Virus record (IMG/VR): IMGVR_UViG_3300010338_000575
Reading direction: 5' to 3' (one strand)
From: a virus
Taxonomy: Duplodnaviria > Caudoviricetes
Length of the DNA: 64,000 nt
The number at the start of each line of letters is the position of its first letter. The first letter of the stretch is position 1. The notes beneath the pieces are model-generated. The model ran no database searches. It saw only the letters and a list, made by a program, of their open reading frames with translations, and had not been told where the DNA came from. Positions 2,071 to 11,279 of this stretch are shown piece by piece. Position numbers and translations under genes: made by a program.

Positions 2071-2080
2071 AGTATTTATT
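2071..2080 (+). promoter_or_regulatory. putative late promoter AGTATTTATT
   Basis: Between the terminator and ORF 2114. Confidence 0.6.
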
Positions 2081-2113: not shown

Positions 2114-4642
2114 ATGTCTAATTTCGATTTTAATTCATTTTTAGATAAATTTAAAAAAATATCAACTTTTATTGGTAGAATTAATTTTGCTAATGAACAT
2201 TTAGAAAAAATCGGTAGTGGTAGTGGTAGAGTTGTTTATAAAATTGATGATTATAGAGTATTTAAAATAGCAAAAAACAATAAAGGTGTTGCACAAAATG
2301 AAGTTGAAATAAGACTTAGTGATGATATATATGCTCCTGATATAATTACTAAAATATACGAATATGCAGATGATTATAGTTGGATTATTGCTGAAAGGGC
2401 AAAGAAATTATCATTGGGTAGATTTAGAGAATTGACAAATGTTAATGATTTGTATAAATTAAAAAACTATTTAGAATGTTCAATAAACCCTAATAAATGT
2501 TATTATGGTAATGTTGACGAATTGAATAAAATATTTGATGATAATGAATTTGCACAAGAATTGTTAGATTTGGTAGTAAATTTTAGTATAAGCGTTGGTG
2601 ATTTTGGTAGATTAAGTAGTTATGGCGAAGTGGTTCGAGATGGTGAATCTCTTGTTGTTATTACCGATTATGGTCTCAATGATGAGGTGTATGAAAAGCA
2701 TTATAATCCACAAAGAAAGGGGAATTTAAAACTATATGAAGTATTTCCATTTTTTGATGGTAATTACGATATATTATCAAATGTAAGTGGTGATGGTGAT
2801 ATAAGAAAATCAATGTGGGCATTATTACCATATGGTGTTGGTGATGGTATTAATGCTGTTAATGAAAATTTTGTTAATTTTGTTTTAAAAAACGATAAAT
2901 ATCCATCCAAACCAATAAAGGATATATATAAATTAGAAAATTGTTATGTTGATTGTGTATCTAATTTAAAAAATATATTAATCAATATCGCAGATATTGA
3001 TGATAGAAAAAGATTCATTACTAATTTAGTTAAATTACAGGAATATTTAAATAAACATAGTGTATTTGGTTTTGATGAAATATTAACAGAAGATATTGAT
3101 GATGATGCAATACCTAAAGTTGATAAATATAATAGTCCTTTTGTTGATTTAAATTATTGGTATAACATTGCTAATGATTTAAGCGAAATGTTGGGTTTGG
3201 GTGGTTTAAAATATATAAAAGGTGGTGGTTTTGGACATGCATATAGAGCGGGGGATAAGGTATTAAAATTGACAGTAGACCCATGTGAAATTGATTCTGG
3301 GATAAAAATTATGGGTGTTAATAATGCTGTAAAACATTTAGTCCATGTTTATAAACTCTATAAAGTTTTTAATACTGAAAAGAATTTATCGTTTTTTATA
3401 TTGGTTTTGGAATATATTGATACAACACGTAATTCAGAATTTAAACAATACTATGATGTTGGTAGTGATATTTTAAAAAAGTGGGATTTATTCGATAGTG
3501 TTTTTAATTTTATATCAAAATTAAAGAATAAAAATTATACATTAGAAATGTATAAAAATGCAATTGATCATATATTAACCGACGATGCTTTAGGCTATGA
3601 TTACGAAACGAGAAAAAATGCACATAAATTTTGGATGGAATTGTATCTAATAAAAAATGAAATAAATGAATTGAATATTAAATCAACTGATTATTTAAAT
3701 TGGGATAATCTTGGTTATAGGGGTGATGTATTGGTTTTTTTTGATTTAGGTGGTTGTCGCCCAGATGAAAATGTTGAGAACAAAATTCCTCTTATTAAAT
3801 TACCAGAAAACGTTGAATACATTAATGAAAATTTAAATTATGATGAAATTGCAAATAAAATAGCAAATAAATTAAATATTAAGGTATTTGATAGAATTGG
3901 TGCTGGTAATTTTGGTGTTGCATATGACATTGGTAATAATTTGGTTATGAAAATAACAAATGATAGTAGTGAAGCGTATGAAAATTTGAAATTAATTGGT
4001 AAGCCATTAAAATATATTGCACAACCATATAAGGTATATAATGTAAATAAAAATGACAATAGTGTTACAAAAAAATTATATGTTATTATTTTAGAAAAAT
4101 TAAAAACAAGTTCAGATATTCGACAATCCTTTGAAAGATTAACATATGTTTTTAAGAATATTTTTAATATTGATTTGCCCGATGCTGTTGAACATTTTTT
4201 AGATATTTGGAAAAACGATAAGATTGATGTGAATAAAATAAATGCATATTTTAGAAAAAATCCACATGATGCAGAATTTTTCAACGGATTATTAAATATT
4301 GGAAAAGAATTGATGAAATACGATATTGTAAGTATGGATTATTTAAAATGGGAAAATCTTGGTTATAAAAATAATAATATTGCATTTTTTGATGTTGGAT
4401 TTGGTAATTATTTTAATTCACCAGATGATGCAGAAACAATTGATATTGATGAGGATGGTAGTTCATTATATTCAACCACTAATACTATTGGTAATGATGA
4501 TTATCCCGTTTATAATCAGGATAATATTCCACCAACAATTGATAATAATATTGATGTGAATACTGCAATATATTCGGAAAATAAAAAATCATTTCTTCCA
4601 AATTCAAAAATTGTTACGATTAAAAAAAAAAGTGTAAATTAG
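2114..4642 (+). CDS. protein with three tandem protein-kinase-like domains; probably the N-terminal part of a polyprotein continuing to 7674
   Basis: GSGSGRVVY/VFKIA/ITDYG; GGGFGHAY/VLKLT/DYLNWDNLG/FFDLG; GAGNFGVAY/VMKIT/DYLKWENLG/FFDVG. Ends just after an A10 run. Confidence 0.75.
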   Translation: MSNFDFNSFLDKFKKISTFIGRINFANEHLEKIGSGSGRVVYKIDDYRVFKIAKNNKGVAQNEVEIRLSDDIYAPDIITKIYEYADDYSWIIAERAKKLSLGRFRELTNVNDLYKLKNYLECSINPNKCYYGNVDELNKIFDDNEFAQELLDLVVNFSISVGDFGRLSSYGEVVRDGESLVVITDYGLNDEVYEKHYNPQRKGNLKLYEVFPFFDGNYDILSNVSGDGDIRKSMWALLPYGVGDGINAVNENFVNFVLKNDKYPSKPIKDIYKLENCYVDCVSNLKNILINIADIDDRKRFITNLVKLQEYLNKHSVFGFDEILTEDIDDDAIPKVDKYNSPFVDLNYWYNIANDLSEMLGLGGLKYIKGGGFGHAYRAGDKVLKLTVDPCEIDSGIKIMGVNNAVKHLVHVYKLYKVFNTEKNLSFFILVLEYIDTTRNSEFKQYYDVGSDILKKWDLFDSVFNFISKLKNKNYTLEMYKNAIDHILTDDALGYDYETRKNAHKFWMELYLIKNEINELNIKSTDYLNWDNLGYRGDVLVFFDLGGCRPDENVENKIPLIKLPENVEYINENLNYDEIANKIANKLNIKVFDRIGAGNFGVAYDIGNNLVMKITNDSSEAYENLKLIGKPLKYIAQPYKVYNVNKNDNSVTKKLYVIILEKLKTSSDIRQSFERLTYVFKNIFNIDLPDAVEHFLDIWKNDKIDVNKINAYFRKNPHDAEFFNGLLNIGKELMKYDIVSMDYLKWENLGYKNNNIAFFDVGFGNYFNSPDDAETIDIDEDGSSLYSTTNTIGNDDYPVYNQDNIPPTIDNNIDVNTAIYSENKKSFLPNSKIVTIKKKSVN

Positions 4643-4920
4643 GTGGTTTAGGTAATGTAAGTGCTGCTTGTAATCAGGGTGATATTAATAATTTATCATT
4701 TTCATTTGTTAAAGAAAGTGTTGGTGATAAGTTATTTCAAAATAAATTTCAATACAAGTCTGATTTTGATGATTTTGAGAAAAAATATAGAAAAGAATTT
4801 GCAAATGATTCAGAAAATATTGTATATTCAGAAGATAATGATTTTTTTATTATAAAAAATCCCAATAATATAAATAATTTAGATTCAGATGTTCGTGCTA
4901 TTGGTGATGATGATGGTAAT

Positions 4921-7674
4921 TTGTACGTTGAATCATATCCCAAATATACACATTCTGATATGCATAATATTTTAAGGTATAAAGGAGTATTAACAAAAAG
5001 TTATGATGAGAATTGGCATAAATCATACCCTAAAAATTATATCTATTTACAAAGAATTGGTGATACCCAAATATTTGTATTAGCAGAATCGTATTTAATT
5101 TTAATATATGATGATGATAGATTTCCCGAAAATTATGATTTGCCTTCAAGAGAAGAAGTATTACCAGTATTTAAATTGTTTTTAGATAAATTAAAACAAA
5201 AAAATCCAAATATTGATTTTGTTAATGAATATATTAATTATTATGTGAATGAAAATATTAATGAAAATGATGATATGAATAATAACGGTGAAAAATACTA
5301 TCGTGCCGTTGATAAATATTTAGGCAAATATGCTAAATTTAAACCAAATGGTTATTATGAAGCAATTGATGATAACAATAATCCCATTTTCAAATATGAT
5401 TCATTTTGGGAAAGTGAAATACCCGAAATTGCTGCTAGTAAACTTATCGGTGGTGCAATTATGGGTTTATATTCAATGTATTTAGAAAATAAAAAAACAC
5501 CCAAAACGTTTTATATATATGAAATCAATGAAAAACCAGACATTGATATATCACATTGGAATATGGGTGATTTTGCGTATTTGAAAGAGGTTCGATATAG
5601 GAGACCTGTTAGTGGTCGTTATGTTGGAAAATTTATATTTGATGATGACACAATAAAAAGATTTGAAGTGTTTTATGAAATAAACAATATTGATGGTTGG
5701 GGAAGTGAGTATGATATTGATGATGAAACGATTGAATTATTTAATAAAACGAATTTTGGTGAATTGTTACGTGATTTAAAAAATAAATTAAGTGAAAATA
5801 ATAAAATTAATGAAAATGATTTAATTAAATTACACGAACTACCGTTTAAAGATGAGATTAAAAAATTAGGTGGTAAAATATATAGTGTTGGTGGTGCTGT
5901 TCGTGATGAATTTCTCGGAAAAAAATCAAAAGATTTGGATTTACTAATTACTGGAATCCCAATGAATAAATTGGAAGAAATATTATCAAAATATGGTCGT
6001 GTTGATGTTGTTGGTAAGTCTTTCGGTATTTTAAAATTTAAACCAAATGGTTTTGAAGATGATATTGATATTGCGATTCCTCGTACTGAAAGACCAACTG
6101 GTGCTGGTGGGCATAAAGGTTTTGAAGTAATATCAAATCATGAACTTCCAATTGAAAAGGATTTAGAACGTAGAGATTTTACAATTAATGCAATTGCGAA
6201 AGATATTAATGGTAATATAATTGATCCATACGGGGGTGTTGATGATTTAAAAAATAAAATAATACGTATTGTTAATCCAGATGCGTTTAGTGATGACCCA
6301 TTAAGAATGCTTCGTGCAGTACAATTTGCAAGTCGTTTTGGTTTTAATATTGAACCCAAAACATTGAAAATGATTCAGAATAATGCACATAGAATCAATG
6401 AAATATCATCTGAGAGAATATTGACAGAATTTGATAAAATTATAAAAAAGGGTGATTGTTTTACTGGTGCGTTTTTATTAAAACAAACAGGGTTATTAAA
6501 AAATATATTTGGTAAAGATGGTGGTATTTTGATTAATGATGATGTTTGGAATAATGTTAGGACGATGGGTGAATTTATTTATTTACTTTCACATAATATT
6601 GTTGATAACCCTGCTGAGTTTTATAAAAAGAAATTAAAGGGTGATATTGATACATATAAAGAAATAAGGGCACTTCAATTAGCATTTGAATATGGTGATG
6701 TAAATAATCCAATCGAATCACGTTCAATTGCACATAATATGTATGTTATAAGTCCCAAAACATTAGATAGTATGATTTTACCTAATAGTATAAAAATTGC
6801 TGCAAATGAATTATTATCAGGTAAATATCCGAAAACTATTAATGAACTTAAAATAAACGGAAATGATTTAATTTCAATGGGATTGAAGGATAAGGAAATT
6901 GGTAAAATGTTAAAACAACTATTATTAAAAATATATGCAGATAAGATAGTTAATGATAAAAAAACATTACTTGATTTTGTGAAAAATAGTACACAAAAAA
7001 TTAATGAGAATGGTGTATCATTATCGCATCTAAATTATAGTTTAAGATATCCTAATAAAGACGTATTAGTGTTTGTGCCTGTTGATAAATTATTATCACG
7101 ACACGAAATAGATGATCCAGATTACGCAATTACTAATAAAAATAATCAAATTGGCAATCGTGTTGAAAGAGCAAAAGAATTTTTACAAAATTATGTTGAT
7201 GATATTTGTTGGATTAATCCACAAACTGGTGTGCGTAATGATAAATATAATGTAATTTTTGAACCATCAATTGCATATTTTTATAATAATAAATTAAAAT
7301 TTAGTGATGGTAGGCATCGAATATTGGCTGCGAAAGAATTGGGTTATGATAAAGTTGCGCTTGAAATACCACAAGAACAATTAGATTTATTTGTTAACGA
7401 ATTGGATGCGGAAATTGTTGATAAAAAAATAAATGAGGGAAAATGGTATGTTGATGGTAAATTGGTTGATATTAATTTTTTTATAAAAAAATTTGATGAA
7501 TGGAATCAAAAAAACGGTGGTAAGTTTGAAATAACAAGAGAAGTTGTAAAAAATTTTTTAATATCAAATTTTAAAAAATTAAGCAACAATAAATGGTTAT
7601 TTAATGAATTGGTATGGGCGTTAAATGATAGAGATTTGTTAAATGAAAATCTTTCTAAACGTGATAATAATTAA
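4921..7674 (+). CDS. cca: multidomain protein: ART-like + CCA-adding tRNA nucleotidyltransferase + ParB/Srx-like domain (frame open from 4624)
   Basis: VGGAVRD..DLD, DLERRDFTINAIA, DDPLRMLRAVQFASRF (class II nucleotidyltransferase); FSDGRHRILAA (ParB-like). Confidence 0.8.
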   Translation: MYVESYPKYTHSDMHNILRYKGVLTKSYDENWHKSYPKNYIYLQRIGDTQIFVLAESYLILIYDDDRFPENYDLPSREEVLPVFKLFLDKLKQKNPNIDFVNEYINYYVNENINENDDMNNNGEKYYRAVDKYLGKYAKFKPNGYYEAIDDNNNPIFKYDSFWESEIPEIAASKLIGGAIMGLYSMYLENKKTPKTFYIYEINEKPDIDISHWNMGDFAYLKEVRYRRPVSGRYVGKFIFDDDTIKRFEVFYEINNIDGWGSEYDIDDETIELFNKTNFGELLRDLKNKLSENNKINENDLIKLHELPFKDEIKKLGGKIYSVGGAVRDEFLGKKSKDLDLLITGIPMNKLEEILSKYGRVDVVGKSFGILKFKPNGFEDDIDIAIPRTERPTGAGGHKGFEVISNHELPIEKDLERRDFTINAIAKDINGNIIDPYGGVDDLKNKIIRIVNPDAFSDDPLRMLRAVQFASRFGFNIEPKTLKMIQNNAHRINEISSERILTEFDKIIKKGDCFTGAFLLKQTGLLKNIFGKDGGILINDDVWNNVRTMGEFIYLLSHNIVDNPAEFYKKKLKGDIDTYKEIRALQLAFEYGDVNNPIESRSIAHNMYVISPKTLDSMILPNSIKIAANELLSGKYPKTINELKINGNDLISMGLKDKEIGKMLKQLLLKIYADKIVNDKKTLLDFVKNSTQKINENGVSLSHLNYSLRYPNKDVLVFVPVDKLLSRHEIDDPDYAITNKNNQIGNRVERAKEFLQNYVDDICWINPQTGVRNDKYNVIFEPSIAYFYNNKLKFSDGRHRILAAKELGYDKVALEIPQEQLDLFVNELDAEIVDKKINEGKWYVDGKLVDINFFIKKFDEWNQKNGGKFEITREVVKNFLISNFKKLSNNKWLFNELVWALNDRDLLNENLSKRDNN

Positions 7675-8150: not shown

Positions 8151-9443
8151 ATGGAAAATGTTGGTGAGGATGATAGTAAACAATCATTGATTAAATCAAT
8201 AGAAAATGTATTAGAAGAACTTAATAATACGCCAGTTGGTAGTGATGAAAATGTTACTAATAACGATAAGTTTGATGTTAAAAATAGATTGCAAAAATTT
8301 AAAGAAATGTTAATTAATATTGATAATGATGAAGATTTTAAAAAAACAATGAGATCAATATTAGCATTTAAAAACTTATTGGGACACATATATAGTTTTC
8401 GTAATACATTGCTCATTTATATACAAAGACCAGATGCTCAAATGGTGAAAAGTGAGTTGAATTGGAATGCCGTAAATAGAGAAGTTGTTGATAAATCAAA
8501 AAGAATACTAATTATAGCACCAGCGAGAAGTGCTTTTAAAAGATACACACCTGATGAGAAAAAAAGAATTATCATTAATTTTTTAAATTCGTTGGGTAAA
8601 AAATCAGAAGATGAATTAACATTAGGTGAAAAAGAAAAATTAAGAGTATTGTTGCGTGGTAAATTGGTGAAAAATGAATTTGAATTAGCACCTGTTTATG
8701 ATATTACTGATACTAAACAAATTGAAGGTAAAGAGAATTTGGTAAAAGATGTTGATGATTTCATAAATATGAAATGGTATGTTGATGATTATAAAACGAG
8801 TGAAATAACACCATTATATAACGCTTTATTAAAATTTGCCGATGAAAATGGAATATCTATTAGTTTTGAGGAAAAAGATTCTAAAATATTAAAAGGAGCA
8901 AGGGGTGCTAGTATTGGTGGTAAGATTTATGTTTTAAAGAACGATGGTAATGATGTTGGAATTACAAAAACACTTGCACACGAAATATTTCATGAATTGC
9001 TACATCAAAAATATTTAAGTCAAAAAAATTCAAAATATGCAGCATATTTTGTCGGTAATGAGAATGGTAGGGGATTGGTTGAACAACAAGCAGAATTATC
9101 TGCATGGATGTTATTGGCATCGTTTGGTTTTGATTTAAAAACCACATCAATAAATTATGTTGCAATTTGGGGTGCTGATAAGGATGCAATGGTTCGTGTG
9201 TTTGATACAATTGCAAATGTTGTGAATTTTATGATAGATTATGTAAATGGTGTAATCACAACATTTGCATCAACAAATGTGAAATTAAGTGAGGTTGAAA
9301 ATATTGTAAAAAAAGGAAAACATATCACGCCAATGGATGTTGCAAAGGTGCTTGGAGTTACCGATGAGTATAAAGAAGTTCTGAGTGATTTAAGAAATAA
9401 AATTAATGAACATTTTTATAGATTTGTAAAAAGAAAATTATAA
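8151..9443 (+). CDS. ArdC-like ssDNA-binding domain + zincin metallopeptidase (polyvalent-protein type)
   Basis: YSFRNTLLIYIQRPDA..W..VNR..ILIIAP..PVYDITDT (ArdC-N); TLAHEIFHELLH..EQQAELSA..SINYVAIW (MPTase). Confidence 0.75.
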   Translation: MENVGEDDSKQSLIKSIENVLEELNNTPVGSDENVTNNDKFDVKNRLQKFKEMLINIDNDEDFKKTMRSILAFKNLLGHIYSFRNTLLIYIQRPDAQMVKSELNWNAVNREVVDKSKRILIIAPARSAFKRYTPDEKKRIIINFLNSLGKKSEDELTLGEKEKLRVLLRGKLVKNEFELAPVYDITDTKQIEGKENLVKDVDDFINMKWYVDDYKTSEITPLYNALLKFADENGISISFEEKDSKILKGARGASIGGKIYVLKNDGNDVGITKTLAHEIFHELLHQKYLSQKNSKYAAYFVGNENGRGLVEQQAELSAWMLLASFGFDLKTTSINYVAIWGADKDAMVRVFDTIANVVNFMIDYVNGVITTFASTNVKLSEVENIVKKGKHITPMDVAKVLGVTDEYKEVLSDLRNKINEHFYRFVKRKL

Positions 9444-9488: not shown

Positions 9489-9866
9489 ATGAATAAAATT
9501 CGATATAGTGCAGTTGTATTGGATGAAAAATCACATAATGAAATTGTTAATCGATTTAAAACAATAATTCCAACTGGTTGGGAAATAATTGCACATCACA
9601 TGACGATTAATTTGGGTGAACTTGATGAAAAATATAAAAAGTATTTAAATAAATCAGTAAAATTAATTGCACATGATATTGGTATTGATGATATGGCGGT
9701 TGCAGTTGGAGTGTCTGGTTTTTTTAGTAAAAATAAAAAACCACATATCACATTAGCGGTTAATAGAAAAAATGGTGGTAAACCTGTAATGTCGAATTAT
9801 ATAAATGATTGGATGCCATTAACAAATCCAATCGAATTAATTGGTATTGTTAAAGAAATTGAATAA
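9489..9866 (+). CDS. 2H phosphoesterase (RNA-repair cyclic phosphodiesterase type)
   Basis: Two HxT motifs: HHMTI and PHITL. Confidence 0.75.
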   Translation: MNKIRYSAVVLDEKSHNEIVNRFKTIIPTGWEIIAHHMTINLGELDEKYKKYLNKSVKLIAHDIGIDDMAVAVGVSGFFSKNKKPHITLAVNRKNGGKPVMSNYINDWMPLTNPIELIGIVKEIE

Positions 9867-9868
9867 TT

Positions 9869-10426
9869 ATGATAAAAAGATTAGTAGCGTTTGATTTTGA
9901 TGGTACTTTAATAGATTCACCATTACCTGAATATGGTAAATTAGTTTGGTCTGAAAAAAAGGGAATTCCATATCCACATTCTGGTTGGTGGAGTAAACCA
10001 GAAAGTCTTGATATTGATGTTTTTGACATAAAACCCAATCCCGTTGTATATTCGCAATATTTAAAAGAAATATCAACACCAAACACATATGTTATTATAT
10101 TAACATCGAGACTAAAAAAATTAGAAGAACAAATTAAATTGGTATTAGAACAAAACAATATATTTGTTAATGAAATCAATACAAAAAATACAAACGAAAC
10201 TAAGGGAATTAGAATACTAAAATATTTAGACAAATTTCCTGAAATAAATGAGATTTCAGTATTTGATGATAGTATTGATGTGATTGAAAATGAATACAAT
10301 ACAATTAAACACTTATTACCAGATAATTTATCGTTTAATATATATTTTGTTAATAATAATAAATTAACATTAGTTGAATCAAAAATAATTGATATTATTA
10401 GGGATGAATTAATAAAATTAATTTAA
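9869..10426 (+). CDS. HAD phosphatase (Swiss-Army-knife RNA repair-like)
   Basis: FDFDGTL, ILTSR, K, VFDD motifs. Confidence 0.75.
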   Translation: MIKRLVAFDFDGTLIDSPLPEYGKLVWSEKKGIPYPHSGWWSKPESLDIDVFDIKPNPVVYSQYLKEISTPNTYVIILTSRLKKLEEQIKLVLEQNNIFVNEINTKNTNETKGIRILKYLDKFPEINEISVFDDSIDVIENEYNTIKHLLPDNLSFNIYFVNNNKLTLVESKIIDIIRDELIKLI

Positions 10427-10427
10427 T

Positions 10428-10437
10428 AGTATTTATT
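10428..10437 (+). promoter_or_regulatory. putative late promoter AGTATTTATT
   Basis: Upstream of ORF 10458. Confidence 0.55.
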
Positions 10438-10457
10438 ATATAATAAATAAAAATTTT

Positions 10458-11279
10458 ATGCATAAAAACGGTAGACCATATTATTTACCACAAATAAGTG
10501 CGCCATATAATATTGTTTTAGATAAATTGAATGATGATAATATTGGTTATAATATCATTAGATTTAAACCCAATGATAATGATAAAATATTACCATCACA
10601 AAAGGTTATTTATTCAGATATTATTGAAAAATGTGAAATAAATAATAATAACCCGATTTGGTTATCAACTGATAATGATGTATTAACAATTTGTGATGGA
10701 CATCATCGTTATTTTAAGGCTCTTTATGATAATGTGCCGATATTAGGTATTGTATTGAATGTCTGTTTTAACGATGCTTGTCGTATTTTAAATAAAATTC
10801 AAGATATTTTTGATTATGAAAAATCTAAATCAATTGAAAATGACGTTAATCAAAATATAATTGATTTGAAACAAGATGATGAAAATCAATTTTTAAATGC
10901 GCTTGAAGAACATAATGGTTTATTAGGTGGTAATAAAAATAATAAAAAAATAATTGCATATAGAAAAGGTTCAATTATTGAAAATTCGGTTATTGGTAAT
11001 TTTTTTTGTTTAAATCCAATTAAGGGTTATGATAAATACGAAATTGAATTTGATAATTTATTGGATGTGAAAGACTTGGGTGTAAAATATAGAAAAAACG
11101 AAAAACCCGTAGATATTTTGTGTAATATTTGGTTTCCGCATATTAATTTTAACACACTCGCAAGTAAATATAACGTATCTTTGGATAATTTAAAATATAA
11201 GGCAATTACAGAATTTGCAAAAAAATTGGGTTATGACGGTGTTAAATATGATGATAATTTAATACAAGGGTTTAAATAA
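10458..11279 (+). CDS. ParB-like N-terminal domain + ART-like C-terminal domain
   Basis: PIWL..ICDGHHRY; IAYRKG..GNFF..YEIEFDNLLD..AKKLGYDGVKY. Confidence 0.5.
   Translation: MHKNGRPYYLPQISAPYNIVLDKLNDDNIGYNIIRFKPNDNDKILPSQKVIYSDIIEKCEINNNNPIWLSTDNDVLTICDGHHRYFKALYDNVPILGIVLNVCFNDACRILNKIQDIFDYEKSKSIENDVNQNIIDLKQDDENQFLNALEEHNGLLGGNKNNKKIIAYRKGSIIENSVIGNFFCLNPIKGYDKYEIEFDNLLDVKDLGVKYRKNEKPVDILCNIWFPHINFNTLASKYNVSLDNLKYKAITEFAKKLGYDGVKYDDNLIQGFK

Follow-up and report, generated by a model that had tools for sequence, protein, structure and literature searches.

A frame-broken polyvalent-protein gene of a T4-like large phage with glutamate-ending linkers as candidate prohead-protease sites

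How could a phage gene that encodes many unrelated enzymes in one chain be expressed as a whole across a broken reading frame, and how could its domains be set free? The question is raised by a locus on the plus strand (positions 2114-7674) of a 64,000-nucleotide stretch of viral DNA (Duplodnaviria; Caudoviricetes; IMG/VR record IMGVR_UViG_3300010338_000575), referred to here as the window, where two long reading frames meet at a run of ten As. An earlier sequence-only reading proposed that both frames encode one late virion polyprotein, composed of three kinases, an ART-like domain, a CCA enzyme and a ParB-like domain, which is cut in the capsid after glutamate by a prohead protease. The gene belongs firmly to the class of polyvalent proteins (Iyer et al. 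2017, PMC5512222). The overall explanation, which is slightly favoured, is that a single polyvalent-protein gene is expressed late, that its product is packaged, cut after Glu and injected, and that the full-length protein is reached through slippage.

One gene across a frame break

The features at the frame break are the following, given with the open reading frame (ORF) on either side:
2114-4642, plus strand: ORF1, the zero-frame product of 842 residues, which ends KKKSVN-stop just past the A run
4454-4621, plus strand: disordered end of ORF1, running up to the junction peptide (pLDDT, the AlphaFold confidence score, ~35; alignment)
4622-4631, plus strand: run of ten As (A10) at which the frame breaks; a single ORF returns with A8 or A11; candidate -1 slippage site, transcriptional or ribosomal
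4624-7674, plus strand: second frame, open for 1016 codons, starting within the A run and overlapping ORF1 there
4624-4716, plus strand: junction peptide, KKKCKLGGLGNVSAACNQGD..VKE, the family's most conserved stretch, with x-E sites on both flanks and in frame in ~60 relatives

The relatives of this gene carry both halves in a single ORF together with the junction peptide, which bears out the earlier proposal that the two ORFs form one gene. A search of 5.8 billion proteins found homologues of ORF1 (35-43% identical) in which one polypeptide also covers the first 30-70 second-frame residues and goes on with varied domains; ~17 database homologues hold the kinase part, the junction peptide and more modules in one ORF. 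A scan of IMG/VR returned 80 loci, ~60 of which have the junction peptide in frame within a single ORF of 1100-2370 residues, with 400-1100 codons on its 5' side and 300-1600 codons on its 3' side. The consensus of the peptide in the IMG/VR relatives is ..GSxxVxVKKKC[RK]LGG..G..S..CNQGD.., and the join in the window reproduces it. On these sequence comparisons, it is near certain that ORF1 and the downstream frame are one gene.

The genes that flank the locus in the window are syntenic with the loci of the relatives, at 40-76% amino-acid identity, which places the phage of the window in the same clade. This clade consists of uncultured T4-like large myoviruses in which the gene is a single ORF, built from a constant kinase N-terminus and a shuffled set of C-terminal modules. 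The window encodes a baseplate wedge protein and other phage genes, and a megablast search against phage records gave no match. In the closest cultured phages the baseplate wedge protein is only ~29% identical, so that experimental work will depend on a new isolate or on heterologous systems.

The junction peptide itself (V-x-V-K-K-K-C-R/K-L-G-G..G..S..C-N-Q-G-D-I-x-N-L) contains two invariant Cys, and the Glu at its end, E31 of the second frame, is conserved in 14 of 14 relatives. AlphaFold leaves the peptide unmodelled (second frame 1-32, pLDDT <50). It could serve in docking or anchoring, or form a small metal or disulphide knot. In one relative (L060, ~10101-10412) the peptide is tandemly duplicated.

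The junction was rebuilt in silico with run lengths of 7 to 12 As. A single open frame results only with A8 (two As removed) or A11 (one added), giving 1852 or 1853 codons, and passage from ORF1 into the second frame corresponds to a -1 shift. With A9 the protein ends ...KKKV-stop and the frames stay unjoined. The sequence-only reading had located the A10 run and both ORFs correctly, but its statement that removing one A joins them was off by one: the join that it quoted, ..VTIKKKCKLGG.., is the A8 reading.

The first in-frame TTG of the second frame lies at 4921 and the first ATG at 4960 (99 and 112 codons in), both within a confidently folded domain, module A. An independent start of the second frame in the A10 genome was considered and rejected, since both codons fall inside that module. 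The locus presents a slippery run followed by a frame that has no start of its own, an arrangement expected of programmed recoding.

Five near-identical versions of ORF1 are found in the protein database and all of them stop at the run, four with the ending KKKSVN (A10) and one with KKKV (A9); in other assemblies, run length was judged from protein termini only. Four distinct variants share the A10 run, and the contigs that carry them, nine or more, come from assemblies by JGI, ENA and Logan. In the A9 variant, an upstream TTG close to the run comes into frame, and a matching call of the second frame, 1020 residues long, fits this. More distant relatives mostly have an interrupted AAAAAGAAA at the site of the run, and some have in-frame A9 or A10 runs. 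Scans of viral contigs and metagenome contigs, by exact patterns for the junction and by protein comparison with the window's own proteins, gave no match.

Breaks of a similar kind may have occurred elsewhere in the family. In two loci (L026 and L028, ~10230-10480) the ORF that holds the junction motif is short, 84-180 residues, and the polyvalent gene is apparently fragmented there too. P0006, a relative of 838 residues with 42% identity, ends ..VKKNVDLGV right at the lysine run and may represent another lineage broken at this place.

Glutamate-ending linkers and a candidate route of release

The linkers between the modules, numbered by the residues of ORF1 or of the second frame, are:
2669-2854, plus strand: low-confidence stretch (ORF1 186-247), with LYE inside (E209, 14/14 relatives) and VNE just after (E251, 13/14)
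3083-3097, plus strand: short linker with LTE (E326; ORF1 324-328), pLDDT <50, partly conserved
3800-3829, plus strand: linker with LPE (E565, 14/14) and INE (E572, 12/14), pLDDT <50 at 565-572
5242-5286, plus strand: linker VNE-N-INE, pLDDT <50 at second-frame 207-221, homology breakpoint
5788-5814, plus strand: linker with LSE and INE, low pLDDT at second-frame 392-400, breakpoint
7000-7008, plus strand: INE bordering the CCA module on its C-terminal side; a phi-N-E (phi, hydrophobic) follows the CCA module in most relatives
7429-7437, plus strand: INE between modules D and E, breakpoint at second-frame ~935-941

All the x-E tripeptides on which the sequence-only reading was built are present (LYE 2732, VNE 2858, LTE 3083, INE 3821, VKE 4708, VNENINE 5245, LSE 5788, INE 5806, INE 7000, INE 7429 and LNE 7639). 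The bare motif [ILVM]xE is frequent, with 37 occurrences in the joined protein of 1852 residues. The more specific form [ILVM]-N-E reaches 2.9 times its expectation in the family, compared with 1.44 in neighbouring genes and with 1.1 and 0.93 for the controls phi-N-D and phi-N-K.

The borders of the modules were mapped independently, as BLAST homology breakpoints between differently built relatives. Breakpoint zones take up 13% of all positions but contain 43% of the phi-N-E tripeptides; for the Asp and Lys controls the share is 11-13%. Neither enrichment nor boundary bias is seen for controls that carry Asp, Lys or Asn. Ile or Leu occupies P3 at 77% of the border sites, and Asn occupies P2 at 30%. 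In alignments, E209, E251, E565, E572, E780 and E867 stand out as invariant or near-invariant islands within variable linkers, and nearly every copy of modules A, B, CCA and E has a flanking phi-x-E site, whatever its neighbour. The constraint appears to act on the peptide, because the codons at the sites vary like the bulk (bulk codon usage; 37 distinct 9-mers); for the same reason, DNA microhomology was rejected as the origin of the boundary motif.

The structure models lead to the same borders. AlphaFold gives pLDDT <50 for ORF1 186-247, 324-328, 565-572 and 781-842 and for second-frame 1-32, 207-221 and 392-400, besides short dips (second-frame 51-53 and 358-361) and, within module B, low values over 232-268. 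The models span residues 1-1236 of the joined protein. Low-pLDDT linkers make up 18.7% of this length, yet 12 of the 26 [ILVM]xE in it are inside them or adjacent, a placement beyond chance (P ~0.0025), while the same test puts the controls at or below expectation (phi-x-D 4/27, phi-x-K 5/43). The earlier picture of domains bordered by hydrophobic-x-Glu is therefore upheld, as conserved linkers coincide with breakpoints and with low pLDDT.

Further along the window, a stand-alone gene of 125 residues (9489-9866, starting MNKIRYSAVVLD..) matches the last polyprotein module of seven relatives along its whole length, at 47-54% identity, and in five of the seven that module begins 2-3 residues after L-x-E. 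The occurrence of the same protein alone and as a polyprotein module shows that modules can work as separate proteins.

Glu is the residue after which T4-type and phiKZ-type proteases cut, and their substrates are packaged internal or ejection proteins (PMC5694885). A relative whose locus is syntenic with the window (G002, the record behind locus L012) encodes a Peptidase_S77 protein that is 29% identical to T4 gp21 (E 1e-19), and the gene next to it encodes a scaffold-like protein crowded with phi-x-E. The gp23-type capsid protein of G002 has in common with T4 gp23 a propeptide motif (W..LLEG..FENQ) and a core start (..VRR..); at the place of T4's LTE65, between the two, stands INE followed by Ser, a candidate maturation site. 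The capsid targeting sequence (CTS) of T4 is MKTYQEFIAE (PMC8442874). In the loci of the relatives, 45 of 45 family ORFs start with MTYxEF.., a beginning that is found in none of the ~1630 other ORFs there.

The mechanism proposed here would start from a protein made late, a chain of ~1850 residues with three minimal kinase-like domains, a small helical domain, the Cys-containing junction peptide, two uncharacterised domains, a CCA-type nucleotidyltransferase, a ParB/Srx-like domain and a small C-terminal module. An N-terminal signal resembling the T4 CTS would carry it into the prohead, where a gp21-type protease would cut after Glu in [ILVM]-x-E linkers, with a preference for [IL]-N-E. The pieces would then be injected along with the DNA, as a kit for host takeover and counter-defence. 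Processing by a prohead protease is the best-supported mechanism and is considered probable. In the strains of the window, the lysine-codon run is A10 (A9 in one variant) and the zero frame ends after 842 residues; a -1 slip on A10 by a share of transcripts or ribosomes would give a mixture of the 842-residue kinase-only protein and a minor, complete polyprotein. With the gene out of frame in this genome, the complete polyprotein could come from slippage only, and the odds that the strain makes it in this way are about even. A broader proposal is more tentative and falls somewhat short of an even chance: that the whole clade has a true double-stranded DNA phage polyprotein, made of capsid-targeted, shuffled modules that are freed at [IL]-N-E and also occur alone, with this strain tuning the ratio of kinase-only to full-length protein by RNA polymerase slippage.

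Several observations count against this explanation. Enrichment of generic phi-x-E in the family is mild (1.36 times expectation, compared with 1.17 in neighbouring genes), and the sequences in the family tests are related, so that their z-scores overstate independence. The gp21-type protease is known here from the syntenic relative only, and the N-terminus of the window's protein, MSNFDFNSF.., is degenerate and has lost both CTS-like Glu. A search 3' of the A10 run for an RNA structure that would stimulate frameshifting found none (fold z-score 0.18); transcriptional slippage can do without one. The shift lacks conservation: it is confined to five near-identical sequences while ~60 relatives are in frame, and it may therefore be a recent lesion rather than a programmed device. 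Packaging, cleavage and slippage are all inferred.

Such a lesion would be a plain frameshift mutation, after which the 842-residue triple-kinase protein is the sole product and the 1016 codons beyond it stay silent or decay; in a variant of this idea, the A9 strain could translate the second frame separately from the TTG just before the run, where its 1020-residue ORF has been called. The in-frame relatives, the fact that both observed run lengths are out of frame and the lack of a stimulating structure all agree with a recent break. It is harder to reconcile with a downstream frame that has no stop over 1016 codons despite 25% GC and keeps all CCA catalytic motifs intact, with the lack of a usable second-frame start in the A10 genome, and with the persistence of the frame break in several distinct strains. 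Long A runs are moreover established sites of RNA polymerase slippage, as in tssM1, where a run of 11 As gives two length variants (PMC4256274), and runs of ten As are known to rescue such genes. A recent break is held to be doubtful, yet it is a serious rival. An error of sequencing or assembly, behind which the true run would be A11 or A8 and the gene intact, is very improbable: homopolymers of ten or more are error-prone, run length varies between records (A10, A9) and some relatives are in frame at this site with A9 or A10, but the recurrence of A10 in four variants and on at least nine contigs from three sources makes an assembly artefact unlikely, and the sole deviant, A9, is likewise out of frame.

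The linkers, for their part, might have nothing to do with a prohead protease. The protein could act as an intact multi-domain enzyme, with phi-N-E merely a favoured linker sequence, or another peptidase, such as the zincin-like product of 8151-9443, could cut it ahead of packaging or once it has been injected. In this AT-rich proteome N and E are common, embedded or associated metallopeptidases have been proposed for polyvalent proteins (Iyer et al., PMC5512222), and 8151-9443 has weak matches to MPTase-PolyVal and ArdC-like proteins. Such a reading is unlikely, as the Asp, Lys and Asn controls lack both enrichment and boundary bias, the same motif stands at the expected capsid maturation site in relatives whose scaffold-like protein is full of such sites, and T4-type proteases are known to cut after Glu (PMC5694885).

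Modules, promoter and neighbouring genes

The domains of the joined protein, in order, are:
2171-2668, plus strand: kinase-like domain 1 (ORF1 ~20-185), with a GSGSG G-loop, Lys51, Glu65, Asp163 and Asp185-Tyr-Gly; AlphaFold, Foldseek and a PHROG kinase match
2861-3073, plus strand: small helical domain (ORF1 250-320); AlphaFold
3146-3793, plus strand: kinase-like domain 2 (ORF1 ~345-560); AlphaFold and Foldseek
3836-4453, plus strand: kinase-like domain 3 (ORF1 ~575-780), ending IDE (E780, 14/14); AlphaFold and Foldseek
4717-5241, plus strand: module A (second frame 32-206), alpha/beta fold, pLDDT ~90, with invariant NP, R, H and R
5287-5796, plus strand: module B (second frame 222-391), with conserved YYRAV..AASK..EVRYRR; possibly ART-like, unproven
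5836-6993, plus strand: nucleotidyltransferase of class II CCA-adding/poly(A) polymerase type (second frame 405-790), with GGAVRD..DLD, RRDFTINA and DDPLR
7012-7404, plus strand: module D (second frame 797-927), candidate ParB/Srx-like, with invariant DGRHR
7441-7647, plus strand: module E (second frame 940-1008), conserved, ~65 residues, ending ..DRDLLNE; terminal or near-terminal in many relatives

The three ORF1 units have no Pfam match, and their top Foldseek matches are all of the kinase fold (JAK tandem kinases, APH(2''), PknS, CaMK, GCN2), with probability ~1. In domain 1, G34/G36/G38, K51, E65, D163 and D185 are invariant across the family. On the predicted structures, the three kinases of the sequence-only reading are confirmed as protein-kinase-like domains.

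The CCA enzyme was also recognized correctly. The module matches Pfam PF01743 (83.9 bits, cut-off 23) and PF12627 (53.9 bits), a PHROG and CCA enzymes in the PDB (E 5e-29), and its catalytic motifs are intact; by sequence, residues 405-790 of the second frame are confirmed as a class II CCA/poly(A) nucleotidyltransferase, an assignment that does not distinguish CCA-adding from A-adding specificity.

The remaining modules are less clear. Module A has a weak fold similarity to NFACT-R domains (Rqc2/NEMF/RqcH-type; VIA-align Z up to 3.9) and returned nothing in a protein atlas search; it is present in three tandem copies in L053 (10635-12311) and in two in other relatives. For modules A and B, Foldseek found no match in PDB or BFVD, and VIA-align stays below Z 4. 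The ART-like domain proposed earlier is not established: module B lacks a Pfam ART match, and the five ART-fold toxins in its VIA-align list have a weak Z of 2.0-2.9, obtained with a model that is partly of low pLDDT. For module D, the ParB-like assignment is plausible but unproven, since DGRHR is invariant in 20 sequences and the best PDB profile match is the ParB/Srx-fold protein SbnI (weak, E=0.04), while Pfam detects no ParBc there and is blank too for the stand-alone homologues of D and E. Homologues of module D also occur as stand-alone proteins of ~150 residues. The DGRHR module is found as well, at 45-55% identity, within giant proteins of 3500-5650 residues (P0049, P0052, P0055, P0059, P0073, P0093).

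The window has 25% GC and is densely coding under translation table 11. Upstream of the gene are found:
2030-2060: terminator of the preceding gene, a GC-rich hairpin with T/A runs; an equivalent one lies at the same place in relatives
2072-2079, plus strand: promoter-like element GTATTTAT, 42 nt before the ATG; candidate late promoter

The TATTTAT motif that had been read as a late signal is present at 2073-2079, but as a bare motif it stays at chance level, with 125 occurrences observed and 135 expected. The longer element behaves differently. It lies ~25-42 nt 5' of the gene, after the terminator hairpin, in nearly all of 32 loci (the window and 31 relatives); TATTTAT is found upstream of the gene in 32/32 and GTATTTA in 30 of the 32. 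In the window the longer element occurs 17 times on the plus strand and 6 times on the minus strand, and nine of the plus-strand copies stand 22-42 nt ahead of the start of an ORF. Its copies on the plus strand (1343, 2072, 10429, 14660, 19528, 24910, 38970, 55158, 60427 and others) include some at genes next to the baseplate wedge gene, and it also precedes the scaffold-like head gene in G002 and L081. It looks like a phage promoter class and, on sequence, can reasonably be read as a late promoter, with the late timing presumed.

Three neighbouring genes touch on the same subjects. The gene at 111-1316 (401 residues), just upstream, resembles a second, smaller polyvalent-type protein: its first ~280 residues are conserved in 57 loci and its C-terminus is a GNAT acetyltransferase domain. 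The gene at 8151-9443 (430 residues), conserved downstream of the polyvalent gene in 11 loci, has weak matches to zincin-like MPTase-PolyVal (PF18818, E 0.009) and to PHROG families of metallo-proteases and of anti-restriction (ArdC-like) proteins. The gene at 9869-10426, next to 9489-9866 and near the CCA module, has weak matches to HAD_SAK_1 and the polynucleotide-kinase family, which fits a theme of RNA-end repair.

Comparison with known systems

Polyvalent proteins are thought to be the first phage proteins delivered into the cell, and the release of their many domains is unsettled. The present family offers a concrete and testable route, consisting of Glu-ending linkers, a leader like the T4 CTS and a gp21-type protease. 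If it is true, module borders could be read from sequence, so that hundreds of uncharacterised effector domains could be excised from giant metagenomic proteins, and the family would be a natural example of many cargo enzymes packaged in a T4-type head. The junction peptide, modules A, B and E and the set of kinases and tRNA-end-repair enzymes, putatively aimed at host defences, are candidates for functional tests. The A10 break may be a further case of a phage gene whose expression depends on slippage. Within the limits of the library searched, no description was found in the literature of a phage polyprotein of this kind cut by a prohead protease.

The features of the polyvalent class are all seen in this gene. 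Unrelated effector domains stand in one chain (three of kinase fold, the CCA nucleotidyltransferase, the DGRHR domain and three more modules), here only by way of the -1 shift; the gene context is that of virion genes, with the baseplate wedge in the window and gp23/gp21-type genes in syntenic relatives; and the architecture is variable, with modules shuffled or repeated and with PF18760, PF02195, PF13563 and PF18905 (ART-PolyVal, ParBc, 2H and DUF5661) in relatives.

As in the proteins described by Iyer et al., a giant chain combines many unrelated, shuffled effector domains, is encoded among virion genes and includes kinases like those of the minimal clade known from polyvalent proteins of Bacteroidetes and Verrucomicrobia phages (PMC5512222). 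The same work already likened polyvalent proteins to viral polyproteins released by embedded peptidases. No embedded peptidase is found here; instead there are [ILVM]-x-E linkers that would fit a T4-type protease acting in trans, and a CTS-like N-terminus. The CCA-type nucleotidyltransferase module is a further difference, as the term CCA is absent from PMC5512222.

The internal proteins of T4 and Alt are alike in their CTS (MKTYQEFIAE), which the N-terminal motif of the relatives resembles, in the hydrophobic-x-Glu motif, in the gp21/gp23-type genes that relatives of the window share with T4, and in the predicted injection of host-modifying enzymes. They are cut once, losing a propeptide of 10-20 residues, whereas here ~10 sites would free up to nine modules, and the CTS-like motif of the window is degenerate. 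The ejection proteins of phiKZ-like giant phages (phiKZ, 201phi2-1, SPN3US) are also packaged in the head and cut after Glu by a gp21-related protease, some of them at several sites. In contrast to the present family, their motif is S/A/G-x-E rather than one with Ile or Leu at P3, what they lose are long propeptides rather than the linkers of a modular chain, and there is no sequence relationship between the two.

The frame break has its closest likeness in Citrobacter tssM1 (PMC4256274), where a stop likewise comes soon after a long A run (A11) and before an open frame encoding the rest of a conserved protein, giving two length variants; in the phage, by contrast, slippage is proposed from the sequence, and outside one strain group the shift is not conserved. 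Compared with these systems, what appears to be new is the combination of conserved linkers of trans-protease type with a leader like the T4 CTS across a clade of T4-like large phages, the interchange of stand-alone genes and polyprotein modules at those linkers, and a strain-specific break at an A run that would need slippage for full-length expression.

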